Positions 6,099 to 56,615 of a DNA stretch of 56,983 bases are shown here, one piece after another. Positions within the stretch are counted from its first letter, which is position 1; each line of letters opens with the position of its first letter. Where the stretch lies: positions 1 to 56,983 of the IMG/VR virus record IMGVR_UViG_3300046007_005671. One strand, 5' to 3'. The DNA is from a virus (Duplodnaviria; Caudoviricetes). Made by a program: the position numbers and the translations under genes. The notes below the pieces were generated by a model, which was not told the origin of the DNA, searched no databases, and saw only the letters and a program-made list of their open reading frames with translations.

Positions 6099-6161
6099 GA
6101 TTATGTGTCCTCTATGTGGTCTATCGGTTGGTCCGGATCGTCTCACTGATCCAGTCCCTGT

Positions 6162-11742: not shown

Positions 11743-11747
11743 TACCT

Positions 11748-13583
11748 CTATCCTTTCGCTTCATACCAGTCTTCGCCTATGCCCCACTCGCACGTGATCG
11801 GAACACGTAGGTGAATAGGGCATTCTACACCATCAAAGGTCGTGTAGATTCGTGCTACCTCTTGCGCTTTGTCGAGTGAGTCATTATCGAGCGATATGCC
11901 CACCTCGTCGTGTACCGTCAACAGTAGTCGCCCACAGCCTTCGGCGGTTAAATACTTGTGCAGTTCGATGAGCTTTTGCTTCATGCAGTCCGCGCTGGTA
12001 GCTTGGTAGATCAGCCCCGACGCCTTGTGCACGAATTGCCCGCCCGGAAAGCGGAGCCTCCGGCCCATCACTGAATGCACTGAGCCGCGTTCCTTGGCGA
12101 TGTTACTCGCCTTCTGCGCGGTGTTGCGCATCCCGGGGTTCGCGGCGTGATACTTGTCGAACAGCTCCATCGCTTCGGGTCCAGCCTTTAGGAACACGTT
12201 ACCGCTCGGCCCCACTTCCTCGGTATAGGGCAGTCCGCATTCCTGCGCTAGCCGCCCCGACCCCATATTGAACGCCAGCCCGAGATTAATCGCCTTCGAA
12301 GACGGGCCACCCGCGTACTGAGCGTTTCGGGGGATACCGGTGAGGTCAGACACCAACTGGTGAAAGTCGAGCTTAGGATTAGCGCGATAGGCCTCAATAA
12401 TCGAGGGCACCTGACCGTAATGGTTAGCCACTCGAAATTCAAATTGTGACCAATCCAGCCCCATCCATTTAGCACCCACATCAGCCTTGAAAATCGGCCG
12501 GATAAGCGATTTGATGGCAACGTCTCTAGATGGTATCTGCTGGAGAGCGGGATTGGTAACTGATAGGCGTCCAGTGCCAGTTCCCGCTTCAGCGTCGTTT
12601 TTAGTCTGGTTATAGTTGCAGTGAATGATGCCATCGTGTTCGTGCCCCAAAATATGACCCGACAGAAAAGTATCCCGGGTCTTCAGCATTTTACGCAAGT
12701 CGAGGATCATCTTCGCGGCGGGGTGCTTCATGCGTCGCAAGCAGTCGGCGTTGATCGAGGCTTTGCCGCCATCAGTCTTGTCCGCTTTCGTGCCGTCGAT
12801 CAAGTACCATTCATTATCGTCCGCGAGTGTCGGCTTGAATAGATCCGCGATCGATCCGGACGGGTTCGGGTTGACCTCGAAACCGGCCAAGCTATTCAGA
12901 TCCCTCTGCATATTGTCAACGCGCACGGTGAGGTCGCGGACGGCCTTCTCAGCCAGCCCCACATCCACCCGCACGCCCTGCTCTTCCATGTCCATGATCA
13001 CGGGCATCAAGTCGCGCTCTAGCCGGTGGACTTGGGCGAGATTCTGCGTCCGCATCTGCTCCTCTTGCCAGTCGTAGAGTGCCAGTGTAACTACAGCGTC
13101 CTGAATAGCGTATTTCGACACCATGCTGATCGGAGCACGCGAAATGTTCGGCATCTGCGCATTCCGAGTCGAGCGGCCACCGAAGAGTCGCGCCATCTCC
13201 TCGTAGATCTCGTCGTCCTTTTTCATGCCGCAGTATTTGCGGGCGAGGAAGTCAAGGGCGTAGGTGGGTTCGTGTTCCGAGATCAGAGCGGCACGGGTCA
13301 TCGTGCAGTCGATTCGGTCGAGGGGGATCGCCACCCCAGCTTCCCGGAGGAAGTGGAGGTCGAATTTAAGATTGTGGCCGACCCACACATCGACACGCTT
13401 CTCGTCGATAAGGTCGTTGAGCCACTTGATAACATGAGGGTCGGACCGTACATCCCAGTACCCCGAGAAGCCGGGGAGCGCGATGGAAATGCCGAACAGC
13501 TTGTCGGCCCACCATTTCAGTCCCGTGGTCTCGGTGTCAATGACCACCACCGGAGCGTGGTCAATGCGTGGGAAAGCGGTCAT
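11748..13583 (-). CDS. dpoZ: Family A DNA polymerase with 3'-5' exonuclease (DpoZ-like)
   Basis: DTETTG, HNLKFD, YAIQD exonuclease motifs; TGRLS, DWSQFEFR, KAINLG, VHDE polymerase motifs; adjacent to purZ. Confidence 0.85.
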   Translation of the reverse strand: MTAFPRIDHAPVVVIDTETTGLKWWADKLFGISIALPGFSGYWDVRSDPHVIKWLNDLIDEKRVDVWVGHNLKFDLHFLREAGVAIPLDRIDCTMTRAALISEHEPTYALDFLARKYCGMKKDDEIYEEMARLFGGRSTRNAQMPNISRAPISMVSKYAIQDAVVTLALYDWQEEQMRTQNLAQVHRLERDLMPVIMDMEEQGVRVDVGLAEKAVRDLTVRVDNMQRDLNSLAGFEVNPNPSGSIADLFKPTLADDNEWYLIDGTKADKTDGGKASINADCLRRMKHPAAKMILDLRKMLKTRDTFLSGHILGHEHDGIIHCNYNQTKNDAEAGTGTGRLSVTNPALQQIPSRDVAIKSLIRPIFKADVGAKWMGLDWSQFEFRVANHYGQVPSIIEAYRANPKLDFHQLVSDLTGIPRNAQYAGGPSSKAINLGLAFNMGSGRLAQECGLPYTEEVGPSGNVFLKAGPEAMELFDKYHAANPGMRNTAQKASNIAKERGSVHSVMGRRLRFPGGQFVHKASGLIYQATSADCMKQKLIELHKYLTAEGCGRLLLTVHDEVGISLDNDSLDKAQEVARIYTTFDGVECPIHLRVPITCEWGIGEDWYEAKG

Positions 13584-15474: not shown

Positions 15475-16214
15475 TACTCGGATTCTGCGACTTCATTCAC
15501 TTCACCGTCGTAGTCGTTCGAGACCTTGACGCCGCCGGAACGGATCGTTTCGTACAGCTTCTCGGCACGCTCGTACAGCTCTTTGTTCACGAACCCGAGG
15601 GCCGCGACGTTGAAGTTGAAGTAGCTCTCATTCCGCGCATTGGTCTCGGTCGTAGCCGACAGCTTGTAGGCGCGGCTGAACGAATCCGTGTTCGAGAGTC
15701 GCATCAGCGAGTTCCAACGCTTGGATACCTTGACCTTGGACTTGGCCATCGAGATCACCGCTTCTTGCCAGTCGTCGCCATTGCGCACCAGCACGAAGTG
15801 TTGAGCCGTATCGGACACTTCCAACGCTTCTTCGGCCAGCTCCGCGATCGCGCGATCTGCGAGTTCTTTACTGGCGAACGCTCCACGAAAGCCGTTACTG
15901 CCACCACCGCCCGCTTTACGGTCTTTCCACACGAGGAACTGCTTCGTGTAGTACACCGGCACCACAGTCACTTCAGTGCCGTACAGCGTGCGGGTGACGT
16001 TATTGTACAGCATGCCTTCTTCCGCGCCTTCGATGTAGGCGGGGTCGCTTTTCTTGCGCACTGGGGACAGTGCTTGGATCAGCTCAATGCGGGGGATAAT
16101 CATGTCATCAGTGCCGACATTCTCCGCGCCGCGATTGCCTTGCTTCATGAAATCCGGGATCTCGTTAGTTACGAGTTCGAACTCTTCTTTTACTGCTACT
16201 TGATTTTTAGCCAT
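15471..16214 (-). CDS. Putative ssDNA-binding/recombination-associated protein
   Basis: IPRIELIQALSP motif, acidic C-terminus ending in aromatic residue, replication context. Confidence 0.55.
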   Translation of the reverse strand: MAKNQVAVKEEFELVTNEIPDFMKQGNRGAENVGTDDMIIPRIELIQALSPVRKKSDPAYIEGAEEGMLYNNVTRTLYGTEVTVVPVYYTKQFLVWKDRKAGGGGSNGFRGAFASKELADRAIAELAEEALEVSDTAQHFVLVRNGDDWQEAVISMAKSKVKVSKRWNSLMRLSNTDSFSRAYKLSATTETNARNESYFNFNVAALGFVNKELYERAEKLYETIRSGGVKVSNDYDGEVNEVAESEY

Positions 16215-16273
16215 TACTAGCTCCTAGTTACATGCACGCATTGCGTGCGGGATATCCGGCACCATTGCCGAAT

Positions 16274-16711
16274 TCATGTTCGCGTGATCGAGGCACGCGT
16301 AAAAGGTGACACGTTCAGAAGAGTATCCGGCACTTCTTCGCCTTCGCGGAACATCTTCTTGACTGCCGCCTTAAGTGTTGAGGGGTTAATATTCTCCTGC
16401 AAAAGGTCGCCGCGCCCGTTGTCGCGGAGCCATGTGAAAAATTCGGACTTCTGGTCCGCTTTCACCGACACGTGCATGTCAGCCGTCAACGACACGCGGC
16501 CAATGCCAGTAACGTTGATGCGGTCCACTCCATCTTCTTCCATCTTGCTCGGCACCTTCGTGATGCGGAGGAAGTCGAACTCTCGATTGATCAGCTTCAG
16601 CTGGTCTTCCAGTGCCTCTTTGCGATTCTGCATCGTGGACATCGCGTGGACCAGATCCACCAACGACATCGGGTCGTACTTCTTGAATTCGCTCTCGATC
16701 TCAATAGACAT
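16274..16711 (-). CDS. Phage replication-region hypothetical protein
   Basis: Coiled-coil N-terminus, WLRDNG...INPSTLKA motif; RBS. Confidence 0.75.
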   Translation of the reverse strand: MSIEIESEFKKYDPMSLVDLVHAMSTMQNRKEALEDQLKLINREFDFLRITKVPSKMEEDGVDRINVTGIGRVSLTADMHVSVKADQKSEFFTWLRDNGRGDLLQENINPSTLKAAVKKMFREGEEVPDTLLNVSPFTRASITRT

Positions 16712-17103: not shown

Positions 17104-18825
17104 GTTCCGATCGTTTCGGTCGTTGATGCTTGTCCGCACGAACTCGCTCACATCTTTCTTCTCTCGCAACGCCTGATTTACGGCCGCATCTACAGTGCCC
17201 TCGGCAATGATGTCGATGTAGGTCACACTCCGCGTCTGCCCGATCCGGTGTGCGCGATCTTCGGACTGCTCGCGATCGGTGAAAGAGAACGAGTTCGAGT
17301 AGTACACCACAAGCTCTGCGCGGGTCATGTTAAGACCCACACCGCCAGTGGCCGCGTTACCCACAAGAAACCGCGCCTTGCCGGTTTGGAACAGGTTCTG
17401 CACGTTGTGGTCGCGGTCGTTCTCGGAAATGCCGCCGTGAATCTCTACCACCGCGTCGCGGCCGTACCTTTCGCGCAAAGCCTCGCACACCATCCGAATC
17501 TCCTCGATGAACCGGCACCACACGATCGTGCTGGCGTCGTTCTCCTCGGCTATAGCGAGTAGCTCCTCGACTTTCGGATTCTTTCCTGCAATGCGGTTAT
17601 GCGTGAACTTCGCCGCGTCGTAAAGGTCTGGGTTACGCTCAAAGGTGATGATACCTCCGGCGATCTCTTGGAGCCGGAGCATTCGCTCGAGCACTGTCTT
17701 GACGGTGATTCCTTGATCTCCAGATACCGTTTTGTCACGCTTAGCAATGTCTTTATATAGTCGTTTTTGTTCATCTGTCAGTTCAACCTCTCGGGTCTGG
17801 TACACTTTAGGTGGTAGCTCCGTCAGCACCTCGGATTTGCGGACTTGATAGATGAACGGCGAGATCAGCTCGATAAGCTCTTCCATATTCTGGTAGCCTA
17901 CCACTTGCCGATCCTCATACCCACCCATGATCGCATACCGATTGCGGAAAGAGTAGAAATCCCCGATCCCAATAATGTTTGGATCGAGGAACTCGAATTG
18001 CATGAAAATGTCCATCGGGCCATTCGCTACTGGCGTGCCTGTCATGATCACTTTGTAATTCGCGGATTTACCCAACTTCACGCAGTTCTTACTGCGCACG
18101 GCCGAGTGGTTTTTAATCATGTGTGCTTCGTCCACAATCATCCCGACACGGGTACTGCAGTCCACGAACTTCTGCGCAAGATGCACCGCGCCACCAGCCG
18201 CAAGCGACTCGGTGCCGACGATTAGGAACTTCAGCCGCCCATCGGTCGTGGTATTCCACTCCTCGAATGCCTTGGGCTTGCTGGTGTTTAGGATCATCGT
18301 GTCGCACTCCATCGGGCAGTGGATTAGCACCTCGCGCTCCCAGTTCTTACGCGTACTGAACTTGGTGACAATCAGCACCCGATCCACCTTGCTGTCCATG
18401 AAGTAGGCGGCAAAGAGATCGAGCGAGGTCTTGGTCTTTCCCGTACCCATGTCCATGTAGAACGCGAACGTGCTCTTATTCCACGCATGGTCAAGTCCCT
18501 TGAGCTGGTACGGCCGGGGTGTGGTCTTGAACGTGTAGACGGGCGGGAACGCCGCTACTTGATTCGTGCGTACGCGCTCGATAGTCGAAGTTGCAACCGT
18601 GCGAGCATCGTCTGTGAATGTGTCAGCATCAAAATTACCCAGCAGAAACTCGCTATTAGCCCGAAGAGCAGGAGCTGTCCACACGCGGCGACGAGAATCC
18701 CAACGCCGATTGGGAATGCGGCGAATCTTGTCCACCATCCACGGCGGGGAGTGAATAACGAATCGGCTGGTCTTTGCGTCATATGCGATCTGCACCTTAG
18801 AATTCTGATCGGAACTTGGGTTCAT
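17083..18825 (-). CDS. SNF2-family (SF2) helicase
   Basis: MDMGTGKT, DEAH, TGTP, GLN, QSEDRAHRIGQ. Confidence 0.92.
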   Translation of the reverse strand: MNPSSDQNSKVQIAYDAKTSRFVIHSPPWMVDKIRRIPNRRWDSRRRVWTAPALRANSEFLLGNFDADTFTDDARTVATSTIERVRTNQVAAFPPVYTFKTTPRPYQLKGLDHAWNKSTFAFYMDMGTGKTKTSLDLFAAYFMDSKVDRVLIVTKFSTRKNWEREVLIHCPMECDTMILNTSKPKAFEEWNTTTDGRLKFLIVGTESLAAGGAVHLAQKFVDCSTRVGMIVDEAHMIKNHSAVRSKNCVKLGKSANYKVIMTGTPVANGPMDIFMQFEFLDPNIIGIGDFYSFRNRYAIMGGYEDRQVVGYQNMEELIELISPFIYQVRKSEVLTELPPKVYQTREVELTDEQKRLYKDIAKRDKTVSGDQGITVKTVLERMLRLQEIAGGIITFERNPDLYDAAKFTHNRIAGKNPKVEELLAIAEENDASTIVWCRFIEEIRMVCEALRERYGRDAVVEIHGGISENDRDHNVQNLFQTGKARFLVGNAATGGVGLNMTRAELVVYYSNSFSFTDREQSEDRAHRIGQTRSVTYIDIIAEGTVDAAVNQALREKKDVSEFVRTSINDRNDRNLLGMLA

Positions 18826-20359
18826 CGACTTTCACCTCATGATCTTCGGTTATGGGGGCATACCAAACGTTGATGGGCTTGCCGCCCGGGATTCGGAGCT
18901 TGTCGTGGTCCGCGCCGCAGTCACGCCGGAGCGACGTCCACAGATCCATCCCCGTCATCACCTCGGCCTTGTTGCGCTTCAGGAATTCGGAGAATGCAGT
19001 GCCCCGGAACACGATGCACCGCGTGCCGTTGATGACCTGCACCACCGGGATGTTGCGGGTGAGTGCCTTGCGATCTTCGATGTTAGTGCCATCGGAAGTG
19101 AGGTCGGCTTTTTGCACGAACTCGTTGAACTTGGCGGCAATGATACCCGACGCGCTGGCCTCCTTTGGTACTTCAATCACTCGCAGTGTTGGAATGAGCG
19201 GGTCAAGGATACGACGTCGCCACGAGTCCTGCGTGATTTTCGGTATATTGATCTTGAGCTGTTCGAAGATCAGTGTGCCCATCGCGGCGGGGTCACGTAG
19301 GATAATAGTCGGGATGTTCGCGATGAGCTTCCCGTTGACGTGGATACCCCAGCGCGGGGGTTCGGATTGATACTCAATCAGCTCGGTGAACTGGGGCAGT
19401 TGGTCCTGCGCATCCAGCTCTTTACTCTCGTCGGTCGAGATCCCGAACTCGCGGGTGACACACACCTTGCGGTCGCAGAGCGATTTGCATGGCTCCTCGC
19501 TACATTTGTACAGGTAGTCCCGGCGCGACGCGGAGCGAATCACCTTCTTAGCCTCGGCGGGTCCCAGCGGCTTGTCGAACATCGTGCGGTTCAGGGCCAT
19601 CGCATCGTCAAAGAATGTGTCGGGACGGGCACGTTTGAGGTACACCACCACGTTGTACATCGAGTCATTGCGGGAGCCGGACTCCACACCCGTGTGAATC
19701 ATTTTCTGAATGCACGGCGGGGCTTCCAAATGCTCCCGGTGGGCCATTTCCTGAAGTGCCGCCACTGTTACCCGACGCGACTGGGCGTACGAGATGAACA
19801 GCTCGAACGACATCTTCTGCCCTTTGTCGTCGATCGCGTACCGCACCGTCTTGTCTTTGTCAAAAAACGGCAGGTTGATCCAGTTCCCCAGCGACTTTTC
19901 GCCACTGGACGTGGTCAGCGAGTCCTGCTTGGGGAAGATGTCCACGTGGTTCGGAATTTGAAGCATGTCGCGCCACGAATTCAGAAGCCGGATCACGAGC
20001 TTAGCCGGAAGGTACTCCTCGCCAAATAGGTACAGGTGCGCCCCGCCCGATTTGCTACGGGTCGCCACTAGCGGGAGCCGGTAATGCTCGATTTTCTCCA
20101 CGAGCTTGGGGATGTCGATGTCGGACCCATCCGAGCCTTTGCCGTGATTATCCACGTCGATACAGCCGAACAGCACCGTACCCCCATCCGTGATTGGGAC
20201 TATGCCCAGCCCCATCACCCCATCCAAATGGTCCGTGTAATGTTGTAATGTAACCTCGCTCTTCTCGGTCACCATATTGCCTGTCGCCGGGTCCCACTGT
20301 CCAAAGGACCGGAGATTCCCAGCGAACAGATTCGCGTAGTCCTGAACTAGACTAGTCAT
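18797..20359 (-). CDS. AEP-superfamily primase with PriCT-like region
   Basis: CIDVD, RSKSGGAHLY, FPKQ, GNWINLP; PPC...GSRND helical domain and Cys cluster; no P-loop seen. Confidence 0.75.
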   Translation of the reverse strand: MTSLVQDYANLFAGNLRSFGQWDPATGNMVTEKSEVTLQHYTDHLDGVMGLGIVPITDGGTVLFGCIDVDNHGKGSDGSDIDIPKLVEKIEHYRLPLVATRSKSGGAHLYLFGEEYLPAKLVIRLLNSWRDMLQIPNHVDIFPKQDSLTTSSGEKSLGNWINLPFFDKDKTVRYAIDDKGQKMSFELFISYAQSRRVTVAALQEMAHREHLEAPPCIQKMIHTGVESGSRNDSMYNVVVYLKRARPDTFFDDAMALNRTMFDKPLGPAEAKKVIRSASRRDYLYKCSEEPCKSLCDRKVCVTREFGISTDESKELDAQDQLPQFTELIEYQSEPPRWGIHVNGKLIANIPTIILRDPAAMGTLIFEQLKINIPKITQDSWRRRILDPLIPTLRVIEVPKEASASGIIAAKFNEFVQKADLTSDGTNIEDRKALTRNIPVVQVINGTRCIVFRGTAFSEFLKRNKAEVMTGMDLWTSLRRDCGADHDKLRIPGGKPINVWYAPITEDHEVKVDEPKFRSEF

Positions 20360-20386
20360 CGTTTCACCTCTCTATACGTCTATGTA

Positions 20387-20415
20387 TTGACACCACCTCT
20401 GTGGGCTGGTATAAT
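20387..20415 (+). promoter_or_regulatory. Plus-strand sigma70 promoter TTGACA-17-TATAAT firing into non-coding element A
   Basis: Perfect consensus with TG extended -10. Confidence 0.75.
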
Positions 20416-20442
20416 TATAACATCTCGCCATCGGAACAGCAA
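20414..20442 (-). promoter_or_regulatory. Minus-strand promoter TTGCTG-17-TATAAT for primase operon
   Basis: -10 overlaps the plus-strand -10 (TATAATTATA). Confidence 0.6.
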
Positions 20443-20451
20443 CCCCCACCG

Positions 20452-20692
20452 TTTGTTCCACCGTTCCATAGCAATGGAACACATGATGGAACACCCTCCC
20501 CCATTCGACAGACGGCATAGCTGTTCCACCGTTCCATGCGCACGCGGGGAATTCTCTGTCAACGCCGTGGTTCGATACGGGGGGTATATGATGGAACGGG
20601 GGGTACAACGGAACACGGCACATTCAAGCCCCGAAGGACGCGGGCTTCGAGACACCAGAGCGTTCCAGACGCCGTACCATCTTGATGGTACA
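20452..20692 (+). repeat. Element A: GTTCCA/TGGAAC hairpin array, inverted paralog of 56361-56615
   Basis: 8 exact hexamers plus variants; collinear shared blocks with reverse complement of element B. Confidence 0.85.
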
Positions 20693-20782
20693 GGTAGTCG
20701 ATTCTAGGGTCTTCTCGTGCGTACGCATGTAAGCGGAAGCCTCTCCGAGCGCATCGAAGAGGTGGGGAGCTATATTAGTAGC

Positions 20783-22837
20783 TTACTGGCCCATGGAACT
20801 CAAGGGAGAGGGCGGAGGACCGGCTGGCGGGGTCACCATACCGGATAGCTCCACCCTCGGCGGCCGTGTGGGGGCCATTGAGTCTTCGGGATATTGATCT
20901 TTGGGATCTCGAGAGGCGGCAAGGCCCCCGATTAGTGTGGCTCCGGCATTCGTAGCACGGCTCGAGGTGAGCAATGACTCCTCCTGCTGTTTGAGCGACT
21001 GCATTATACTGTCAATTACCGTGTCCACCTTAGCGGTCGGGGTCAGGAGCTTCTGAGTAGTTTGGCGAGCAACCCGGGGCGGCATTCCAATCATGTTCGG
21101 AAATTGGGCGCGGAGCGCATCCCCGGCGGCGGTGAAAGGACGACCAGCCATCAAGTTCGCGGCGGCACCCACCCCTGCGGCACCTTGGTCAAGGTCGGTA
21201 TCCAGTGGCGTCCGGCGGAACCCGGCCTTTTCAGTCTGGAGCATCCGTTGCTCTTGCATCAAGCGATCCTTGAACTCGTCAAATGCGGCGTCGTCACGGA
21301 AAGCGCGGCGTAGCTTCTGCTCGGCATCACGGGACAGAATCGACTTCACCGGATCGGCCGTAGGTCCCGCGACGCGAAGCTTCTCCAGCATCGCTTGGGA
21401 GATACCGGAGCGGAAAGCGTCGTACTCGGATGGTGAATCCTTGAATCGGTCGATAAGCTTGCGCATATCTAGCTCGGGCATCGTGTAAATCTGCTGGCCC
21501 TCTTTCATCGCTGTTAACAGCTCGGAGTCACCGGCAAATGTCTGCCGTGCGATTCTGTACTCGGGTGACGCCTTTTCCATATCGGCGAGCAGTCGCCGTT
21601 TCATATTCAGAAGTGTCGCGGCTTGGCCACCGCTACCTTCGCGCATCGCGTTTTCGATCATGTCGTCCAGCGCGATCTTGGTCTCGTGCAATCCGCGCAG
21701 GGTGTTGCGGGGGTCGGTGATGTCGATCTCGTTGTCGGCCATCCGCTTCGCGCCGATCTTCATCGCCTCTTTGAATGTAGGCAAGTTCCGGAGTCGAGCG
21801 ATGTCGGGCGCGGTCGCGGGACTGAAAGTCGGAGCACTCGCATAAGCCGCTTTGTAGAGCGGGTCAGCCTCGTCACTACGCTTCTTAATGAGGTCTAGCA
21901 CGTCTGTGTAGAAGTCTTTAGAACCTGACATCAACGTACGTAAATCTTCCGATACACGGGGGATGCGTTCCATCTCGCGGGTGACGAGTTCGGATTTACC
22001 AATGCGTCGCGCTGGCGATGGGGCGGCGGTTGCGTTGCGGAGCAGTGCGGCGGTGTTCTCGCCTAGATCAGCTAGTGTGATCTCGCCACGAGACATCGAT
22101 TGCATTTTGGCCAGTGCTTGGTCGGGTGTCATCCCGTCCTTTTCCAGTGCCTTAACTATCGCAAGATCAGCCGCCTTATTCGCATCGCCGAAACCCAGTG
22201 ATTGCTTGATCTTGCTAAACGCTGGCATCGCCACGTACTTGCCGAGCAGTCCCAACGTACCAGTGGTCACAGCACCGACAGTCGCGCCTTTGACTGCTTC
22301 TCCGCCCAATTCGCTGGGAGGCTTTTCGCTCGTACCGACAGCGGTCACGGCACCAGACCCAGCACCATAGCCCATCATTCGGGGAATACTTGGGGCTTTG
22401 CCAAAGAGCATACCAGCGAGCTTCGGGCCGACAGCTTTGGAGACCGATGGGACCGCGCCAGCACCACCGGTGAACAGAGCCGGAACCAATGCGCCACCAA
22501 ACTCTGAGGCAACCGCAGTGCGGGGATTTTCTTCTGCGTATTTGCGTAGGCCTTCGCGTTCGGCTTTTACTAAGTCTTCGTAGCTTTGATTGCCACCCAT
22601 CGAGCGCAACCGAGCGATAGCTTCATCCGAGAAGCCCATAGAGAGACCTTGGAGTGCCTGACCAGCCGCACCCGGAAGCATCGCGTTGGGGCGTGGGGCT
22701 TGTGGGCGTACCGGCGCGGCGGGGGCTTGAGTATCGGGTGTACCCGCCTTGTTCAGCGTGAACCTGCGAATCGTAGCCTCAGGCGTACCAGCGGGGAATT
22801 CGTAGATCTTGCCGTCAATCACTCGTTCGATGGTCAT
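20783..22837 (-). CDS. Putative internal virion/DNA ejection protein
   Basis: Ala/Gly-rich helical protein at end of structural operon. Confidence 0.6.
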   Translation of the reverse strand: MTIERVIDGKIYEFPAGTPEATIRRFTLNKAGTPDTQAPAAPVRPQAPRPNAMLPGAAGQALQGLSMGFSDEAIARLRSMGGNQSYEDLVKAEREGLRKYAEENPRTAVASEFGGALVPALFTGGAGAVPSVSKAVGPKLAGMLFGKAPSIPRMMGYGAGSGAVTAVGTSEKPPSELGGEAVKGATVGAVTTGTLGLLGKYVAMPAFSKIKQSLGFGDANKAADLAIVKALEKDGMTPDQALAKMQSMSRGEITLADLGENTAALLRNATAAPSPARRIGKSELVTREMERIPRVSEDLRTLMSGSKDFYTDVLDLIKKRSDEADPLYKAAYASAPTFSPATAPDIARLRNLPTFKEAMKIGAKRMADNEIDITDPRNTLRGLHETKIALDDMIENAMREGSGGQAATLLNMKRRLLADMEKASPEYRIARQTFAGDSELLTAMKEGQQIYTMPELDMRKLIDRFKDSPSEYDAFRSGISQAMLEKLRVAGPTADPVKSILSRDAEQKLRRAFRDDAAFDEFKDRLMQEQRMLQTEKAGFRRTPLDTDLDQGAAGVGAAANLMAGRPFTAAGDALRAQFPNMIGMPPRVARQTTQKLLTPTAKVDTVIDSIMQSLKQQEESLLTSSRATNAGATLIGGLAASRDPKDQYPEDSMAPTRPPRVELSGMVTPPAGPPPSPLSSMGQ

Positions 22838-24484: not shown

Positions 24485-25501
24485 TTAGTTCGGGTCGTAT
24501 TCTGTGAAGCCACTGTTACTCCCCGAGAAGTAATCATTGAAGCCCGGGCTACTGAACAAATTGCTGAGTGACGTGCCGAGCGAACTGAATGCGTTGCCGA
24601 ATCCAGCGGCGGCACTAGTACCACCTTGAGGTCCGGAAGCGAAGAGAGAGCCGAGACCGGCGATTTGGGCGAGTGGCGACGTGGAGTAGGCACCGGGAAT
24701 CGGGGCACTGGCCTTCTCGGACACTGTGCTCGGCACTTTAACATTCGAGAACACGTTGGCCGCACCAGTAGCGGCGGCAAGCGGTGCCATAATCCCGGTC
24801 TGCTCGAGCTTCTGCTCTTCACTGCCGAGACTGTACAGACGTTCGAGTTCTTTGAGCTTCAAGTCGAGTTCCGAGGACGCTAAATTGCGTTGAGTCTCGG
24901 CGGCGTTACGGTACAAGCCCGATTGCTCCATCGCGGCTTTCAATGCACTGTCGTAGCCCGATGCCATCTGCTTTGTTTGTGCACCCAGCAGGTTCGCTTG
25001 AGTATCGGCTCCTAACTGGCCCATAGCGTCGAACATCCGCTTGCCACCCAATCCACCAGTACCGGCGAATGCGCCTTTGAGTGATGGTATCAACGAGCGT
25101 TGAAGGCTCTGCTGTTGGAGTCTTTCCATTTCGTCCACCACACCGGGCATCTTCACACCTTTTGCATTGGTGTAACCCGAAATGTAGGGATTCATGAAGC
25201 TTTGAATCATCTCCGGCGTGATTCCAGCGGCGGCAAGCGCGGCGGTGTCGCCAGCGTCGCCCAGCATAGTCTCGTAACCGCGAAGCCCAGTGCCTTCACC
25301 ATCTTCGCCTTTAGCGTAGTCGAGAACGCTCGTCTGCAGGTCCGACATTGGAGCGACAAGCTCTTCGCCGGTCTTTTTCAGCAGTTCCGTGCCGGGTTCA
25401 GCGAGACCTTCAAGGTACGTCGTGTACCAGTCCGGACCAGTGGTATCGACTACCTTGGTCGTGTCAATATTCGGTAGGGGATCGCCTTGAAGCAAGCTCA
25501 T
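24485..25501 (-). CDS. Putative DNA-transfer/pilot protein
   Basis: FMNPY, Q/A/G-rich, GAFAGTGG segment resembling podovirus ejection proteins. Confidence 0.55.
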   Translation of the reverse strand: MSLLQGDPLPNIDTTKVVDTTGPDWYTTYLEGLAEPGTELLKKTGEELVAPMSDLQTSVLDYAKGEDGEGTGLRGYETMLGDAGDTAALAAAGITPEMIQSFMNPYISGYTNAKGVKMPGVVDEMERLQQQSLQRSLIPSLKGAFAGTGGLGGKRMFDAMGQLGADTQANLLGAQTKQMASGYDSALKAAMEQSGLYRNAAETQRNLASSELDLKLKELERLYSLGSEEQKLEQTGIMAPLAAATGAANVFSNVKVPSTVSEKASAPIPGAYSTSPLAQIAGLGSLFASGPQGGTSAAAGFGNAFSSLGTSLSNLFSSPGFNDYFSGSNSGFTEYDPN

Positions 25502-28500
25502 AATACACCTTTCAGATATGCCAAGGGCGATTTAGCCGCTGGGGGAATTGATTTAATGGAGCCGCCGCGTTTGTGCTTGCGGATTGCTTCCCGCATCGCA
25601 TCCAGCTTCTTGGCACCCTCTTTGTTCGAACCGTCGCCCAGTGCCGCCACAATATCCGCGTCGAACACGTATTCGCCGTCAGCGAGCTTCGCGGGGATGA
25701 GATCGTCCTGACCGCCGCCCGCGCCCTGTACGTAGTGTGAACCTTTGTGTGGTACATCGCCGCCCGACGCCGCCATTAGTGGAGAAGCCATTATTTTACC
25801 ACCGTCGGCATATTTCTGTACAGTCCCCCCATTCATGAACGGTTCGAGGACCTTGGAATAGGAGGGTTCAGTACCGTAGGCGTAATAATCGGCTCCGGGT
25901 TTCTCAGCCCCGTCTTCGATTCCGGAGGCTCGGCGTAGGGCCGAAAGTGCTTGTGCTTCTTGGAACATAGGGGTGTCTTGTGGAAGTAGTGCGCCGAGTC
26001 CGGCAAGTGGCGCGAGGTTGCGGAATCGACCACCGAGCCATGTCTCGGCGATGTCGCTGTCTTTGGCTTTGTACGTAGGTTCGCTGAACGATGGCCCAGC
26101 CATCATACCCGGCGTCTGTTTTTTGGGCGTAGCTAACTTAAGCTTGGCCGCTTCGATGCGTTTGTTAACCTCATCGGGCGTCAAGACTTCTCCAGTAGTG
26201 ACGTCGATTGCTGTACCATCCACCACCACTGTATTGCTATCGATGACTTTACCGGGACCGTCCACGCTAATAATTTCGCCTGTGTCCGTGTTTACGTTGA
26301 GCGTCGTAGTGAGATCAGTGTTCGTGCCCACCACGGTGTTAGTGGTGACGCCGGTAGTCGTGTTATTGGTCGAGGTCGTACCGACACCCGTGGCCGCGTT
26401 GTTGTTAGTCGTGGTCGTAATGCCGGTGGTGTTATTCGTGCTCACGGCAGTAGTTGTACCTGTCGTCGCGTTCGAAGTTGTAGTCGTCGTCGTACCAGTA
26501 TTAGCGTCCGAGGTAGTGCTGGAGGTCACACCCGTCGCCGCATTGGAGCTGGTCGTAGCCCCAGTCGCCGCATTGGTGCTCGTGGTCGTACCAGTAGTCG
26601 CTGTGGTGTTAGCACCAGTCGCTGTGGTTGCCCCCGTTCCAGCTGTGGTGTTAGCACCAGTCGCTGTGGTTGCCCCCGTTCCAGCTGTGGTGTTAGCACC
26701 AGTCGCTGTGGTTGCCCCCGTTCCAGCAGTCACATTAGACACGGCAGTAGTCGCGGCATTGGACGCAGTCGCAACGTCAGCTCCAGCGGCAACTGCGGCA
26801 TTTGTAGCAGTAGCGGCCACTACGTTTGCATTAGCACCAGTGGCATTTGCGGCGTCGACTACCGAGGTAATTGTGTTGTTAACGTCAGCACCGTTGTTTA
26901 TAGCTGTACCAACCGATGTGTCGACGGCTTGGGTCGTGTTACCGGTGGTGGTGAAGATCGATGCAAAATCCGTGGCGGCGGCTGTGTCGGCACCAGTCGC
27001 GGCAGAGCTGGCCGTGGCGGTCGTGTCAGCTCCCGCTGTTGCAGTGCCACTACCCGCGACATCAGTCGCAGTGGTTCCAGCGGTTCCAGCGGTCCCAGTC
27101 GCACCCGTGTCGGTGATTTTGGTAATTGTCTCTGGACGGAATGAGCCATCGGTGGACGTCAGGCCTTCAGACGCGAATGCTTGTTGAATATCTGAGGAGA
27201 CGCTCGAACCAGCGGTAAGTGATCCGGAGGTTTTAGAACCGATTGTACTACCCGCGATAGATTTGGACAAAGCGGTCGCTAGGTCATCACCAGTGGCAAG
27301 TGCGACTGCTAGTTCCTCAAATCCTTCTTCTGCCCATTCTTTGCCGACCGACGTGGTGGTCTTGCCAAAGACTTTTTCCATCGCCTTTTCATAACCTTTG
27401 ATAAGTGCCGCATCCGCGAGAGTTGCTGTTCCAGCGGTAATTGCGAACGCCTTCCATCCATCAGCGTTGGCCAGCCTTTCAGCCTCATCGACTGGTGTTC
27501 CCTTAGCGATCTCTTCGTTAAACTTTTGGCGGGATTGTGAACCCATGGATTCCGAAGCGTTCATTAGAACGTCAGTGGCGATACCTGCGCCTTTGCCAAG
27601 TATTTTGAACACCGCACCGCCGGTAACGATTGGGAGAACCTCTTGAAGGCCTTCTTTAGCGACTTGAGTTAGCACCAGTGGGTTGTTTAGCACAGACTTG
27701 ATCGCGGCGGCCGCTTTTCCAGCGTACGTATCCGCTCCTTGGATGTCGTTCCAGAAGTTCTCGGTAGCTTGAGTGACACCGGGTATTTCAAGATTTTGCC
27801 CAGTACCTTCGAGTGACTGGCCCAGTTGCACAAGCAAGTTATAACGCTCGGCCACTCCCATGTTGGCTAGTGCAGTACCAAGGTCAGCGATTTGTTCGCC
27901 ACCCGCTCCGATCAACGTTGAAAGTGTTTGACGAACCACATCACCTGATGTGCCTTCGAGCGTGTTCGCCCAATTCACCAAGTCGCTACCGGCCACGTCG
28001 AGATTCTGAGCCGCTGTAGGCACACCTCTATCGCCTACACCGGCGATGTCGATCATTGGAACCGTGCTACCCGGAGCGTATTTTAGCCCGCGTTCATCAT
28101 AGGCGAAGCCCTTGTCATCAACCCACCGGTCTTGATCATCCTTACCGACGATAGCGGGTGCTTTGTTTAAGATGTCTTGGATCGACGCGTTTTTGAGCTG
28201 ATCAACGGTCATCGAGTTGGCCGTATACGCTAACGCCGCCACTTCTTGGTCGGTGAGCTTATCGAAGGATTTTCCAGTCGTCTTTTCATAGGAGGTTACC
28301 AACCTATCGACTTCAGTGTTGCGAGACTGCTGATCAATCGCTTGATCAACACCTTCGAATTCACCCTGATCAAATGTGCCAGTCGTTCCGGCCGTGACGC
28401 CATCATTACCAGCACCGCCAGTCACCGTATTATTGGTAGTTTGGGTATTAGTGGTAGTGCTAACGCTTGTACCAGTATCAGTACCCGTGCCAGTCACAGA

Positions 28501-30114
28501 ATTCGCGGCGATGAGTGCCTCTTCATCAGTCGCACCAGCGGTTTTTGCGGCAACGAACGCCCCAGCACCATCAGTTACGCTATTCGTAATAGATTTTGCA
28601 ACGGTGGCATTCGACAAGTTATTGGCCGCATTGATGGTGTTGTTAAGTCCCGCCGCCGCGTTGATAATGGCGGCTCCGTTACCCGTGCCTAGTGCGTTAG
28701 TGAGGTTTAGTGCGGCTCCGGCGGTCTTGAGATCGGAGCTGTTGGTAAGTGTACCAAGTGATCCTAGCGCACCTGCATAATTACCAGCGTCAATATTCGC
28801 CACCACATTGTAAGCGTTCCCGGCATCAGCCAGCGAAATTGTGTCGGTGAGCATTGTACTGCCAGCTAATGCGCCCACCGTGGAATTTTGCAACAGCGAA
28901 GACGCCAGTGCGCCCAAGTTGCCTTGATCAATAGCGTTCGCGACGCGAAGGCCAGTAGCTACATCACTAAACCCGCCAACACCCGCAAGACTCGCAAGTC
29001 CACCGAGAACATCACCATTATCAATAGCAATCGCGGCATTAATCGCCTGTGCAAAAGGCGCGACTCCGGGTACGAAAGAGGCTATAGCCAACAATGGGGC
29101 AAAGTCGCCTATGTTACTGCTAGAAGCCCCGGTGGTGTAAAAAATCGGATTGCCCTTAGCGTCGAATGTAGTGCGAAACGCTGTATTACCCGAACCAGCG
29201 TAGGTACCCGACCAAGCGTCGCCCACACCACCACGTTCGCCGTAATCATTGATTAACGCCTTGCCAGTAGCTTTGTTACCAATGACTGTAGTCGTGCCGA
29301 TTGGTGCGACGTAGGCAGTCGAAGATGTTCCACTTTCGCCACCCTCGTATATCTGTTCGGCTTTAACCAACGCCGCATCGACTTCTTTACCATTTTGATC
29401 CACATACCCGACCAGCGTTGCGGTTTGAATGGGCTGGCCGTCTTGATCGACTTGGCCAGTGTAGGAATACTCGTATTGCGGCGTGACTGTTACATCGACT
29501 TTTTGCTCGACTTTACCGACTTGATTGATATCTGTTACGCCGTTCGCTACCAACTGCTCAGCCATAGCCCTAGCGTTAGCTTCAGCAGACCCGAATCCTT
29601 CACCAGTCCACCTAGAAGTGGTACCTTGGGCAAGGATTTGCTGAGTGACTTTATCGACTGCGGCATTGCTGATATTAAAACTCTGGCCAGCGAGTTCAAT
29701 GGTACTATTCGCCGCGTTGTTAGCGGCAATTTGATCAGCTTGCGCTTGTGCTTGACTGTCTAGAAAGGCATCTTCACCGGTGTAGGCTTGGGCTAATGCA
29801 CCAGTTCCAGCCGTGGTTGTGGTGTCTGCGGTAGCACCGGTAGTATTGGAAGTATCGGTAGTCGCTTGAGTCAGTGCACCAGTACCAGACGTAGTTGAAG
29901 TATCCGCCGTTACTGTGTAACCGTTTGCCGGAGCCGTGTAAATGCCGTAAGCACTCTGAATTGTAGGTGTGCCAATGCCGAGGTTGGTCAGGTAATCAAT
30001 CGCTACCTTTTGATTTGCGGCTGTATCTCCCCCTACGAGTCCGATAAATTCCTCGTACGCGTTTGCGATATCTTCAGCCGAGCTTGATGAGGAAAGTCGT
30101 TCGTAGAGTGGCAT
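25498..30114 (-). CDS. 1538-aa Thr/Ala/Gly-rich putative virion protein with C-terminal DDLIPA..GEYV domain
   Basis: Long ORF; low-complexity tract; YADGG...GQDDLIPAKLADGEYVF. Confidence 0.7.
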   Translation of the reverse strand: MPLYERLSSSSSAEDIANAYEEFIGLVGGDTAANQKVAIDYLTNLGIGTPTIQSAYGIYTAPANGYTVTADTSTTSGTGALTQATTDTSNTTGATADTTTTAGTGALAQAYTGEDAFLDSQAQAQADQIAANNAANSTIELAGQSFNISNAAVDKVTQQILAQGTTSRWTGEGFGSAEANARAMAEQLVANGVTDINQVGKVEQKVDVTVTPQYEYSYTGQVDQDGQPIQTATLVGYVDQNGKEVDAALVKAEQIYEGGESGTSSTAYVAPIGTTTVIGNKATGKALINDYGERGGVGDAWSGTYAGSGNTAFRTTFDAKGNPIFYTTGASSSNIGDFAPLLAIASFVPGVAPFAQAINAAIAIDNGDVLGGLASLAGVGGFSDVATGLRVANAIDQGNLGALASSLLQNSTVGALAGSTMLTDTISLADAGNAYNVVANIDAGNYAGALGSLGTLTNSSDLKTAGAALNLTNALGTGNGAAIINAAAGLNNTINAANNLSNATVAKSITNSVTDGAGAFVAAKTAGATDEEALIAANSVTGTGTDTGTSVSTTTNTQTTNNTVTGGAGNDGVTAGTTGTFDQGEFEGVDQAIDQQSRNTEVDRLVTSYEKTTGKSFDKLTDQEVAALAYTANSMTVDQLKNASIQDILNKAPAIVGKDDQDRWVDDKGFAYDERGLKYAPGSTVPMIDIAGVGDRGVPTAAQNLDVAGSDLVNWANTLEGTSGDVVRQTLSTLIGAGGEQIADLGTALANMGVAERYNLLVQLGQSLEGTGQNLEIPGVTQATENFWNDIQGADTYAGKAAAAIKSVLNNPLVLTQVAKEGLQEVLPIVTGGAVFKILGKGAGIATDVLMNASESMGSQSRQKFNEEIAKGTPVDEAERLANADGWKAFAITAGTATLADAALIKGYEKAMEKVFGKTTTSVGKEWAEEGFEELAVALATGDDLATALSKSIAGSTIGSKTSGSLTAGSSVSSDIQQAFASEGLTSTDGSFRPETITKITDTGATGTAGTAGTTATDVAGSGTATAGADTTATASSAATGADTAAATDFASIFTTTGNTTQAVDTSVGTAINNGADVNNTITSVVDAANATGANANVVAATATNAAVAAGADVATASNAATTAVSNVTAGTGATTATGANTTAGTGATTATGANTTAGTGATTATGANTTATTGTTTSTNAATGATTSSNAATGVTSSTTSDANTGTTTTTTSNATTGTTTAVSTNNTTGITTTTNNNAATGVGTTSTNNTTTGVTTNTVVGTNTDLTTTLNVNTDTGEIISVDGPGKVIDSNTVVVDGTAIDVTTGEVLTPDEVNKRIEAAKLKLATPKKQTPGMMAGPSFSEPTYKAKDSDIAETWLGGRFRNLAPLAGLGALLPQDTPMFQEAQALSALRRASGIEDGAEKPGADYYAYGTEPSYSKVLEPFMNGGTVQKYADGGKIMASPLMAASGGDVPHKGSHYVQGAGGGQDDLIPAKLADGEYVFDADIVAALGDGSNKEGAKKLDAMREAIRKHKRGGSIKSIPPAAKSPLAYLKGVL
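26600..26725. repeat. Perfect 42-bp tandem repeat x3 (GTGATTATGANTTA)
   Basis: gctgtggtgttagcaccagtcgctgtggttgcccccgttcca at 26600, 26642, 26684. Confidence 0.95.
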
Positions 30115-56216: not shown

Positions 56217-56360
56217 TCCCCGGCTTTGTATGACCAAGCGTTATGAGGAAGCGTCCGAACATAGCGCGGAGTTATAACGCTTTCGTGCGCACACGTGAGA
56301 AGCCCTGAGAGAAGCCCTGAGTGGTGGTGGAAGGATATTCGACGTCTGAAGACCCCCGTT

Positions 56361-56615
56361 TGTTCCACAATGATGGAACGGTGATGGAACGCACCACTGT
56401 CTCACAAGCCCCGTCCGACGCGGGTTTCGAGACACACAGCCCGTGTACCATTGTTCCATCTAATACCCCCCGCCTCGAACCATGCCGTTGACAGGGCAGT
56501 ACCCCCGCGTGCGCATGTAACAATGGAACACCGGGTCTTTTTTCGAATGGGAGGAGCGTTCCATTGTGCGTTCCATCTTGCTGGAACGGTGGAACGTGTC
56601 TTTTCTTGTTCCACC
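56361..56615 (-). repeat. Element B: GTTCCA/TGGAAC hairpin array, inverted paralog of 20452-20692
   Basis: 10 exact hexamers; shared blocks with element A. Confidence 0.85.

Follow-up and report, generated by a model that had tools for sequence, protein, structure and literature searches.

Two non-coding elements of a lake phage genome, A (20452-20735, + strand) and B (56290-56615, - strand), each about 250-300 bp long, are arrays of 12-13 GTTCCA/TGGAAC words set at fixed spacings of 8/9 bp and 12 bp. Judging from their sequence, A and B may be double-stranded DNA iteron arrays for one replication-linked phage protein and may together form a two-site replication origin, a reading whose chances we put at about even. 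It is supported by the conservation of the words with fixed spacing, by the presence of two arrays per genome and by a concerted change of word in both arrays. Moreover, among the lineages compared, the replication module is the only constant companion of the arrays. The window, that is, the whole 56,983-nt stretch of DNA that was analysed, is a complete phage genome that closes as a circle of ~56.6 kb and contains the gene set for 2-aminoadenine ("Z-genome") as well as a gene for an AEP primase.

Two word arrays at the module junctions

As the first-pass annotation of this DNA had proposed, A is collinear with the reverse complement of B, and the shared blocks that it listed are all present at the places given. 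The local alignment of A(+) with the reverse complement of B scores 133, against 18.3±2.2 (maximum 27) in 300 dinucleotide shuffles. With every GT[TA][CA]CA hexamer masked, the pair still scores 64, against 17.5±2.3 (maximum 26) in shuffles, and the likeness outside the words therefore exceeds that of shuffled controls; 63/78 aligned columns outside the hexamers are identical. Mean column identity in a MAFFT alignment is 77%, and BLAST of A against B inside the genome returns an E of 2.9e-24. The homology extends beyond the limits first drawn, reaching ~20735 in A and ~56290 in B, and takes in palindromic box 2, near which B carries a ~45-nt insertion that is absent from A.

The window contains 62 copies of GTTCCA (30.4±5.6 expected), 8 of them in A and 10 in B. 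Tandem word pairs lie 8 bp apart and opposed pairs 12 bp apart. Three further features accompany the words in each element: a GC hairpin, a brief TATAT tract and a palindromic box. The gene-free gaps that hold A and B (20360-20782 and 56180-56665) are the two largest of the genome, as had been noted, when short ORFs overlapping the elements are set aside; these ORFs are non-coding because close relatives differ there by 1-nt indels. The A gap adjoins the AEP primase gene and the B gap adjoins terS, so placed that the elements are separated by about 20 and 36 kb on the circle, at two module junctions. A distant-mode blastn search with A against GenBank phages gave no match. The features of both elements, with word blocks read from the sequence, are as follows.

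18797..20359, - strand: gene of the AEP primase (520 aa), directly adjoining the A array in all cases; candidate word reader
20387..20415, + strand: consensus sigma-70 promoter TTGACA-N17-TATAAT with TG, directed into A and antisense to all genes; 12/12 matches
20407..20442, - strand: inferred primase-operon promoter, -35 TTGCTG at 20437-20442, extended -10 TGTTATAAT at 20414-20422
20455..20492, + strand: A block 1, GTTCCA cc GTTCCA, then TGGAAC N6 TGGAAC (a direct word pair at 8 bp and an inverted pair at 12 bp)
20500..20508, + strand: conserved CCCATTCGA box of A, nearly invariant among 35 copies
20523..20536, + strand: A block 2, direct pair GTTCCA cc GTTCCA
20535..20549, no strand: palindromic GC box 1 CATGCGCACGCGGGG, family consensus YGCGYRCGCR
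20556..20589, no strand: CTGTCAACG..TGGTTCGA..GGGGGGTATAT, a TGTC...GACA-type palindrome region, then a short AT tract
20592..20614, + strand: A block 2, inverted words TGGAAC / GGGTAC / CGGAAC in 9- and 8-bp steps
20626..20647, no strand: GC-rich stem-loop of A, AAGCCCCGAAGGACGCGGGCTT
20662..20691, + strand: A block 3, GTTCCA N6 GTACCA N6 TGGTAC
20716..20729, no strand: palindromic box 2 of A, CGTGCGTACGCATG, outside the element as first annotated
56284..56297, no strand: palindromic box 2 of B, CACGTGTGCGCACG, beyond the ~45-nt insertion CAGACGTCGAATATCC..CCACCACCAC
56362..56390, - strand: B block 3, GTTCCA N5 GTTCCA N6 TGGAAC
56406..56427, no strand: GC-rich stem-loop of B
56445..56529, - strand: B block 2, GTTCCA tt GTTACA ... 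TGGAAC aa TGGTAC, containing GC box 1 (56503-56517), then CTGTCAACG..TGGTTCGA..GGGGGGTAT
56543..56551, - strand: CCCATTCGA box of B
56558..56595, - strand: B block 1, GTTCCA cc GTTCCA, then TGGAAC N6 TGGAAC

Boxes resembling GC box 1 are present in phages SH-Ab 15497, K21lambda1 and PMBT28. The AT tract of the window is TATAT only, about 5 bp (20585-20589); relatives carry 10-25 bp TATATA-rich stretches at this position, and their counterpart of 20556..20589 is a true palindrome with a longer TATATA stretch. In more distant A-type copies, the inverted words of block 2 read TGGAAC x3.

Relatives, the replication module and the search for a reader

The word, with the same 8-bp and 12-bp steps, recurs in 35-37 distinct copies from related IMG/VR contigs. 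It also lies, at these steps, upstream of the primase gene in the Klebsiella phage K21lambda1, the Salmonella phage PMBT28 and the Providencia phage Kokobel2; their primases share 43-44% identity with that of the window. Among viral contigs of IMG/VR, 63 stretches show the exact block-1 pattern, with two occurrences in each of 9 long contigs (listing read by eye). The pattern had 0 matches in the bacterial and archaeal genome collection, which therefore gives no clue to a host or a prophage. Two arrays are present in all complete relatives examined, and at each locus inspected the primase gene has the A array directly upstream. Two clusters of the lineage's own word are present in K21lambda1, SH-Ab 15497 and the relatives G014 and G005, and also in G017-G020, where the reversed control pattern gave 0 matches. 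The copies are on opposite strands in 8/8 relatives in which both were found. In both arrays of K21lambda1, the first six words point the same way, and the inverted arrangement is thus not universal.

The word itself differs between lineages. In G005 and G003, GTTACA occupies 5-7 of the 10 positions scored in each of the two copies, and as many in the single A copy recovered from G010. Both clusters carry GTATCC in G017-G020, GGTTGC in SH-Ab 15497 and GTAAC in G014. Since the word switches in both arrays together, these data point to one DNA-binding protein acting on both sites. Outside the hexamers, concerted evolution of A and B is weak, with the B of the same genome being the best-matching B for only 3/9 A copies.

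We found only seven genes common to the window, K21lambda1, SH-Ab 15497 and G014 (tblastn, E<=1e-3), namely those for PolA, the UvrD helicase, the gp34-, gp33- and gp32-like (Pam3) proteins, the SNF2 helicase and the primase. The TerL of the window had no tblastn match in K21lambda1 or SH-Ab 15497, and the early genes are not shared. Altogether, the arrays travel with a replication module centred on the primase, and do so across phages with primases of only 35-44% identity. This company gives indirect backing to the link with replication that had been suggested from the window, though not to the specific mechanisms offered with it.

The primase contains AEP-TOTE (Pfam, 7.2e-13) and PriCT_1 domains and matches the PHROG primase family at 3e-125; its family counts 2554 database relatives. 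It has no helicase domain by Pfam, the SNF2 and UvrD helicases being separate genes. The full protein was modelled at a pLDDT of 86 and its C-terminal 200 aa at 85.7, and the C-terminal model suggests a middling likeness to winged-helix and origin-binding domains. Using VIA-align, the C-terminal 200 aa matched the pCW3 relaxosome oriT-binding protein (Z 7.3, rmsd 3.5, 91 residues) and winged helices of the Cch helicase (Z 6.4) and of ORC2 and MCM8 (Z 6.0-6.1), and residues 321-397 of the model matched the N-terminal part of SaPIbov1 Rep (8tch; Z 6.5, rmsd 2.4, 74 residues); all of these lie below a Z of 8, where a match may, according to the tool, mean only a common arrangement. Foldseek returned AEP domains only with the full model and nothing at E<=0.001 with the C-terminal one.

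Comparison across loci gave no support to the primase as a word reader, as no segment of it tracks the word. Word similarity and identity of primase segments gave Spearman coefficients of -0.19 to 0.05 over 654 distant pairs of 703. This comparison covered 35 loci picked from 80, together with K21lambda1, SH-Ab 15497 and L051; near-identical loci were excluded by hand, and L049 was left out of the C-terminal alignment because of a frame error. Group-specific residues are scattered along the protein, and differences in segment identity between word groups are not concentrated in the C-terminal domains. The predicted recognition helices of the winged helix are identical in the mixed-word locus L116 and the GTATCC locus L129. 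When genome-wide orthologs of the GTATCC genome G017 were compared with those of GTTCCA and GTTACA genomes, no protein tracked the word. The ORF 19-465 beside B looked fast-evolving, and was set aside when the protein atlas pointed, as a lead only, to Hjc/RecU-type nucleases (scores 0.93-0.94, the family being found in only 12-56% of the members of those clusters). A PDB sequence search with the gp32-, gp33- and gp34-like proteins gave no match below an E of 0.13, and the protein atlas returned for the gp34-like protein its own family only.

Promoters next to the arrays were also compared. In the promoter directed into A, the -35 is TTGACA in 15/17 distinct A-type copies (TTGACT and TTGACG in the remaining two), and the -10 is TATAAT, TAGAAT or TGTAAT in 17/17. 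No gene lies downstream of it. Reading by eye, a promoter in this direction is also found, displaced, in the GTATCC lineage, and neither K21lambda1 nor PMBT28 shows an evident consensus promoter into A. The primase-operon promoter keeps TGnTAnnAT in 17/17 A-type copies (by eye); it went uncalled by the consensus scan, which demands 4/6 matches in the -35. The promoter scan found no consensus promoter at B. As B lies downstream of the last early gene in the sense direction, read-through would yield a same-sense transcript. Thus, the candidate promoter claimed for each copy is borne out for A, with 12/12 consensus matches and conservation, and not for B.

Reads from 24 sequencing runs were available as contigs, in which a stretch without cover carries no information. 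One contig from an RNA-library run spans 20349-20688 at a depth of 32.7, where the neighbouring contigs listed have 5-12. In a second RNA-library run of the same study, contigs break at 20417-20421, among the contigs listed. Because the runs exist as contigs only, the strand, start and end of an RNA from A are unreadable, and, DNA carry-over being possible, contigs over A do not prove a transcript.

A proposed two-site origin and other explanations

If A and B form an origin, one sequence-specific phage protein, part of the replication module or travelling with it, would read both arrays, and the two sites would bracket the early/replication arm of the circular genome. In each array, the words surround the GC-rich palindromic box, the TGTC...GACA-type palindrome and the short AT tract. 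The replication protein would load on the words and melt or remodel the central AT tract and palindrome, and once loaded it may bridge A and B. The best candidate for the loader would be the AEP primase, through its winged-helix-like C-terminal region, and an alternative would be one of the three small Pam3 gp32-34-like proteins. Copy A is inverted relative to all genes, and its own consensus promoter would provide transcription in the same relative direction as in B, which would be transcribed by read-through from the early genes. Transcription across the arrays would help to open or prime the origin. The anatomy of the arrays in relatives is origin-like, with iteron groups flanking a palindrome and an AT-rich TATATA tract. 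Such AT-rich DNA would melt less easily in this phage if its DNA really carries 2-aminoadenine. Counting against an origin, both arrays lie just upstream of the promoters of two major operons, a position that fits a transcriptional role equally well.

The arrays could instead be operators or enhancers through which a transcription factor of the phage sets the timing of the replication (primase) and late (terS) operons, a possible explanation that we nevertheless regard as doubtful. In this case, a factor at A would arbitrate between overlapping and exclusive promoters, the strong antisense one on the + strand and the weaker one of the primase operon. The geometry is suitable, as the -10 elements of these two promoters overlap and A block 1 begins 13 bp past the inferred -35 of the primase promoter. 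At B, block 3 lies about 50-70 bp upstream of the promoter-like sequence TTCTCA-N18-TTATAA, which, read by eye, includes palindromic box 2, and the second array of K21lambda1 is directly followed by a TTGACA-N17-TATAAT promoter. The concerted word change would suit any trans-acting DNA-binding protein. However, the four lineages share replication proteins only and no regulator recognisable by tblastn, a search that a small fast-evolving one could escape. In addition, 12-13 sites within 250 bp, with an AT tract and palindromes, exceed typical operator needs, and the arrays go with the replication module even where the terminase and the early genes are unrelated.

Returning to a two-site origin, a version opened by transcription seems unlikely to us as formulated. 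Here, replication would start at a looped pair of iteron arrays bracketing the module, and Z:T DNA would be opened by transcription. The family is one of AEP-primase siphophages, many of them with 2-aminoadenine replacing adenine. Opening would not proceed by an AT-rich unwinding element, triple-bonded Z:T DNA being presumably hard to melt, and the dedicated, fully consensus antisense promoter of A would serve solely to drive RNA polymerase through the array, in the relative direction that read-through takes across B.

The first-pass annotation had read the hexamers as nested inverted pairs with compensatory changes, and had proposed from this either strand-specific priming origins or a pair of structured RNAs. 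Both of the changes that it described are present in the window, but the pairing fails across relatives, in which variant partner pairs are broken in 38/53 cases, though words match in 28% of partners against 12% of non-partners. H6:H7 of the 'long stem' is broken in 19/35 copies, and H5:H8 is mostly unpaired. The GC stem-loop, with fixed columns, is paired in 66% of cells, and the asymmetric GC stem of B is flipped relative to its flanks (read by eye). RNAalifold gave a covariation term of -0.7 kcal/mol, and its predicted structure contained no more than hairpins I and III, a single short hairpin and another two short helices, the long stem being absent. At six loci the 5' arm of hairpin I reads GTATCC and the 3' arm is still TGGAAC; L128, L129 and L133 have different words on the two arms. 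These data indicate that what is conserved in the hexamers is the sequence word and not the pairing.

That A(+) and B(-) are paralogous structured non-coding RNAs, with hexamers forming nested hairpins, is accordingly improbable, although several observations would suit them. A conserved consensus promoter drives the A(+) strand, B sits in the sense direction behind the early genes, and RNA-library contigs of one study cover A, with the strand unreadable and DNA carry-over possible. In the structure first proposed, 85.5% of cells pair (83.4% in shuffles), and 38 cells are changed on both sides against 16.9 expected, a number reached by 0/500 shuffles. Moreover, the spacer pair CC:GG has become UU:AA in 7-8 copies and U:G in 7-9. 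On the other hand, the cells with both sides changed belong mostly to a small number of lineages that switched nearly all their words together. Opposite strands fold about equally well or better (fold z-scores on the two strands of -2.0 and -1.8 for A, and of -4.0 and -4.9 for B), and Rfam gave no match for the whole window at the gathering score and none for A or B at E<=1. The words are also kept as sequence between phages with 44% identical primases, which is unusual for RNA stems. The arrays offer a cautionary case, in which opposed iterons mimic RNA hairpins with 'compensatory' changes.

About as improbable is that the elements are single-strand initiation (ssi) signals, whose unwound strands would fold to hairpins recognised by the AEP primase. 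The primase gene beside A would fit, RepB' is among the fold matches of the full primase model, if weakly (Foldseek E 2.9e-3, rank 8), and single-stranded hexamers can form hairpins; because the copies are inverted, equivalent strands of A and B face opposite ways. Yet covariation fails here as it does for an RNA, hairpin I is recoded on one arm, the copies lie tens of kb apart and not adjacent within one origin, and the shared orientation in K21lambda1 breaks the inverted layout. In several phages, tandem 8-bp-phased triplets (CCGTTCCA x3) outnumber opposed partners.

We give hardly any credence to packaging sites bound by TerS or to site-specific inversion sites: B lies just upstream of terS and inverted repeats dividing a circle resemble invertible-segment systems, but some phages with arrays have a TerL without detectable similarity to that of the window, A/B identity is only 77%, the ORFs scanned (part of the genome) include no recombinase, and no inversion isomers were seen, one strand bearing both TerL and the primase in the window as well as in 5/5 complete or near-complete relatives tested.

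On the start of replication in 2-aminoadenine (PurZ) phages, we found no description in the literature searched, which yielded general reviews only and nothing linking 2-aminoadenine with iterons. The arrays represent concrete, testable candidate origins in four cultured phages, PMBT28, K21lambda1, Kokobel2 and the Acinetobacter phage SH-Ab 15497. A ready specificity series for finding the reader protein is provided by the word changes found in nature (GTTCCA, GTTACA, GTATCC, GGTTGC and GTAAC).

Comparison with known systems

Satellite phage P4 resembles the window in that ori and crr are two separate cis elements with the same short iteron in one replicon. In both, a primase-type gene lies nearby and its product ends in a winged-helix-like domain, a middling assignment from the model in the case of the window. 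Both ori and crr are bound by the alpha primase-helicase, and the P4 iteron is an octamer. Alpha is a DnaG-type primase fused to an SF3 helicase, whereas the primase of the window is an AEP with PriCT_1 and no helicase. Alpha binds the origin through a winged-helix domain (PMC2777425). Unlike those of P4, the elements of the window lie about 20 and 36 kb apart at module junctions and comprise ~300 bp each, with 12-13 words, palindromic boxes and a hairpin, and one copy has its own antisense consensus promoter. A further difference is that the primase of the window is a candidate binder only, as the word/primase covariation tests gave no support.

The SaPI/PICI origins, served by Rep or PriRep, are like the arrays in that two iteron groups flank a meltable centre and the initiator/primase gene is adjacent. 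These elements have a single origin, and their initiator carries a helicase. Unlike the window, SaPI origins have neither a second distant array nor an antisense promoter.

The oriV of RSF1010, with ssiA/ssiB and RepB', shares with the window an AEP-like primase and an inverted element pair. The ssi sites are ~40-nt hairpins side by side in one origin, and function as single strands. In the window, unlike in RSF1010, pairing is not conserved and tens of kb separate the copies.

That the transcript into A acts as a primer or in an R-loop would be pure surmise. The T7 primary origin, T4 oriF/oriG and ColE1 are transcription-primed or transcription-activated, without iteron arrays of this kind. 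Their likeness to the window is that a strong gene-less promoter fires into the candidate origin.

Two inverted word arrays at the module junctions

Iteron arrays, conserved as a pair in a large family of AEP-primase siphophages, are the best description of elements A (20452-20735, +) and B (56290-56615, -). The first-pass annotation had noticed inverted copies at the two module junctions, an observation that is confirmed and extended here. A(+) is collinear with B read as its reverse complement, with a local alignment score of 133 against 18.3±2.2 in 300 dinucleotide shuffles. The likeness holds outside the repeated hexamer GTTCCA/TGGAAC (the word): the masked score is 64 against 17.5±2.3 in shuffles, and 63 of 78 non-hexamer columns are identical. 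Homology also reaches past the ranges first proposed, to palindromic box 2 (20716-20729; 56284-56297). GTTCCA occurs 62 times in the window, twice the expectation (30.4±5.6), and 18 of these copies lie inside the two elements. Three others sit in tandem 42-bp/30-bp repeats (26473-26730), unrelated to the arrays, within a 1538-aa ORF (25498-30114, -). As had been proposed, the elements occupy the largest gene-free gaps (20360-20782; 56180-56665), discounting short ORFs that overlap them and are not genes, because they carry single-base indels among close relatives. In A(+) orientation, each element comprises, in order:

1. Block 1: a direct word pair at 8-bp spacing, followed by an inverted pair at 12-bp spacing
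2. CCCATTCGA box
3. Block 2: another direct pair, followed by a palindromic, GC-rich box (CATGCGCACGCGGGG)
4. CTGTCAACG..TGGTTCGA, plus a G-run with a short TATAT
5. Two to three inverted words at 8-9-bp spacing
6. GC hairpin
7. Block 3: a pair of direct words with one or two inverted ones
8. Palindromic box 2

The window is one whole self-closing phage genome of ~56.6 kb, since its first 336 bases repeat as its last 336 (1-336; 56648-56983; 7 mismatches) and the record is rated 100% complete. The overlap probably reflects population variants merged during assembly and not a physical repeat at the genome ends; relatives' contig ends fall at other places relative to B. All long ORFs are on the - strand. 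Transcription would lead from terS (55520-56179) across the structural genes as far as 20783, and in a second arm from the primase through replication genes and small early genes to position 19. Features of this arm include:

Starts 20359, -: AEP primase (Pfam AEP-TOTE 7.2e-13, PriCT_1; PHROG primase 3e-125)
11748-13583, -: family-A DNA polymerase with exonuclease
10615-11742, -: adenylosuccinate-synthetase homologue
10146-10787, -: dATP/dGTP pyrophosphohydrolase-like domain
8755-9318, -: HD phosphohydrolase

The arm also encodes an SNF2 helicase, three Pam3 gp32/33/34-like proteins, a UvrD-type helicase and an SSB. We take the genes at 8755-13583 (-) to be the typical set of phages replacing adenine by 2-aminoadenine (Z-genome). 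The names PurZ, MazZ, DatZ and DpoZ are presumed from general knowledge and from the annotation of phage K21lambda1, whose record labels the corresponding genes '2-aminooxy adenylosuccinate synthetase' and 'dATP triphosphohydrolase'. In primase sequence, the nearest cultured phages (40-44% identity) include Acinetobacter phage SH-Ab 15497 and Salmonella phage PMBT28, and sequencing runs containing near-identical DNA are labelled lake water metagenomes.

Pattern and primase-based scans of IMG/VR recovered 37 distinct element copies. Where both copies of a genome were found, they lie on opposite strands (8/8 relatives), ~20-22 kb apart. IMG/VR viral contigs contain the exact block-1 pattern in 63 stretches, nine long contigs having it twice, and the bacterial genome collection has no match. 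The architecture recurs upstream of the primase gene in distant cultured phages, and these arrays too combine a GC box and a TGTC...GACA palindrome with opposed word copies. In all complete genomes examined, the genome's own word forms a second cluster at another place.

Array words and word clusters in relatives
K21lambda1: CCGTTCCA x3; 22028-22120 and 45042-45301
PMBT28: CCGTTCCA x3
Kokobel2: GGTTCCA x3
SH-Ab 15497: GGTTGCTC x3; 20891-21062 and 43040-43237
L051/L052 (loci with primase 35-36% identical): AAGTAAC
L049 (locus): TGGAAT
G014 (genome): 6589-6922 and 27054-27493
G005 (genome): 16201-16429 and 53442-53670

Two B-type copies (L077 of genome G001, L078 of G011) are themselves large palindromes, with oppositely oriented copies of block 1 at either end. 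The motif GCTATAT(A/T)nGTAGC (20771-20790) lies over the last tail gene's stop codon, where the A gap ends on its far side; by eye, it takes the same position in K21lambda1, PMBT28 and several metagenomic relatives (L084, L092, L117, L128, L133).

Replication and transcription around the arrays

By tblastn of all window ORFs, only seven proteins are common to the four array-bearing lineages (window, K21lambda1, SH-Ab 15497, G014): primase, SNF2 helicase, the gp32-, gp33- and gp34-like proteins, UvrD helicase and PolA. The window TerL has no tblastn match in K21lambda1 or SH-Ab 15497, the nucleotide-modification genes are absent from G014, and the early genes are not common to the four. Hence, it is the replication module that the arrays accompany, and not the functions of packaging, base modification or early regulation. 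This sharing, the constant primase adjacency and the arrangement of iterons, palindrome and AT tract lead us to read the pair as a putative two-site origin.

The primase may be the protein that reads the word, a reasonable candidate rather than a finding; an association between word and primase sequence was looked for and none was established. Its model (pLDDT 86) comprises an AEP domain, a PriCT helix bundle, a Cys-rich stretch and 200 C-terminal residues. For the AEP domain, Foldseek gives CAPP Prim-Pol (E 7.7e-12), with weak matches to RepB' and pRN1. Modelled alone (pLDDT 85.7), the C-terminal part has no Foldseek match at E<=0.001. VIA-align, at Z values that the tool itself regards as common, pairs its residues 82-192 with the pCW3 oriT-binding accessory protein (Z 7.3, rmsd 3.5, 91 aligned), its residues 1-77 with the N-terminal part of SaPIbov1 Rep (Z 6.5, rmsd 2.4, 74 aligned), and the model with winged-helix domains of Cch helicase, ORC2 and MCM8 (Z 6.0-6.4).

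The arrays may instead act in transcription, as both lie just upstream of the two operon starts. The candidate promoter initially assigned to each copy holds for A, where a 12/12 consensus (TTGACA-N17-TATAAT, +) points into the array, and fails for B, which has no consensus promoter and lies in sense direction behind the last early gene. Left of A, this promoter overlaps one on the opposite strand, the inferred primase-operon promoter (-; extended -10 TGTTATAAT, -35 TTGCTG). Both are conserved: of 17 distinct A-type copies, 15 have TTGACA as the + strand -35, and all 17 retain TGnTAnnAT on the - strand. The 24 sequencing runs identified are all in contig form. In two RNA-library runs of the same study, unstranded contigs cover A, and DNA carry-over may contribute. 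Among the contigs listed, a 340-nt one (20349-20688) has a depth of 32.7 against 5-12 for its neighbours, and in the second run two contigs meet at 20417-20421, within the overlapping -10 region. These data weakly hint that the A region is present in RNA, with some change at the promoters. Elsewhere, five early promoters (-; TTGACA-N18-TATAAT with TGT in front; 1432-1482, 2575-2625, 3457-3507, 5370-5396, 6148-6198) each precede a small gene, with a conserved leader after them (+ strand sequence GTCCTCTATCTGTTG).

The surroundings of B have features of their own. The 13-mer GTGGTTTAATTCG flanks the B gap as a direct repeat (56184-56196 and 56662-56674, also 15-27). One copy, preceded by a terminator-like hairpin (56199-56212, -), lies 4 nt ahead of the ATG of terS and is kept in 13/13 B-type relatives; the other overlaps the last early gene's stop codon and is retained in the closest relatives only. 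Between B and terS (56230-56280, -) lies a second word family, unrelated to the array word (GTTATAAC / GTTATG / CATAAC, replaced at the same position by CATAGT / ACTATC / GATAGT in G001 and G003), which resembles a set of operators for another protein where the late operon begins. The ORF adjoining B (19-465, -, 148 aa) is named 'DNA helicase' by PHROG 2165, yet has a D...ELK motif. Its protein-atlas neighbours offer a Hjc/RecU-type junction resolvase as a lead only, from clusters in which only 12-56% of members carry that family; the protein is 35-58% identical among relatives with primases 69-86% identical.

Word identity and base pairing

The first-pass annotation had proposed ssi-like strand-specific priming origins or paralogous structured RNAs, with the hexamers as pairing arms. 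Within the close family the word reads GTTCCA, GTACCA or GTTACA. GTTACA fills 5-7 of 10 scored positions in both copies of G005 and G003, likewise in the single A copy recovered from G010, and 0-1 positions in other copies. GTATCC arrays appeared at six loci in a scan of 80 primase loci; tandem GTATCC-N3-GTATCC is confined to two clusters per genome in four genomes of this kind, and the reversed control pattern gave 0 matches. In this lineage block 1 reads GTATCC..GTATCC..TGGAAC..TGGAAC, so the arms of the proposed first hairpin are mismatched, yet arm number and layout are retained.

In an alignment of 35 copies, 15/53 variant partner pairs are complementary, against 38/328 for non-partner pairs of the same sequences, and H6:H7, the hexamers at the core of the proposed long stem, are mismatched in 19. 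The compensatory change in the last hairpin (GTACCA/TGGTAC) is matched in seven near-identical copies and mismatched (GTACCA/TGGAAC) in eight. RNAalifold returns hairpins I and III of the proposal plus three short helices; its covariation term is -0.7 kcal/mol. The proposed structure has 85.5% paired cells against 83.4% in shuffles, and 38 double changes against 16.9, an excess that kinship alone can yield. These come mostly from lineages with a wholesale word switch and from one shared CC:GG to TT:AA spacer change, common to near-identical B copies. Folding energies show no strand preference (A: z -2.0 on +, -1.8 on -; B: -4.0 on -, -4.9 on +), and Rfam gave no match for the window at gathering score, nor for either element even at E<=1. 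Altogether, the words are kept as sequence while pairing is often broken. Structured-RNA and ssi-hairpin mechanisms are not supported; the replication link stays plausible. There is no sign of site-specific inversion, since TerL and primase share a strand in the window and in 5/5 relatives tested.

Relation to known origins

We found no description of these arrays in the main texts of the searchable literature. Among known concepts, P4 ori/crr comes nearest, along with SaPI-type origins. Unlike in those systems, the initiator architecture is different here, the two copies occupy module junctions, and one of them has a dedicated antisense consensus promoter.
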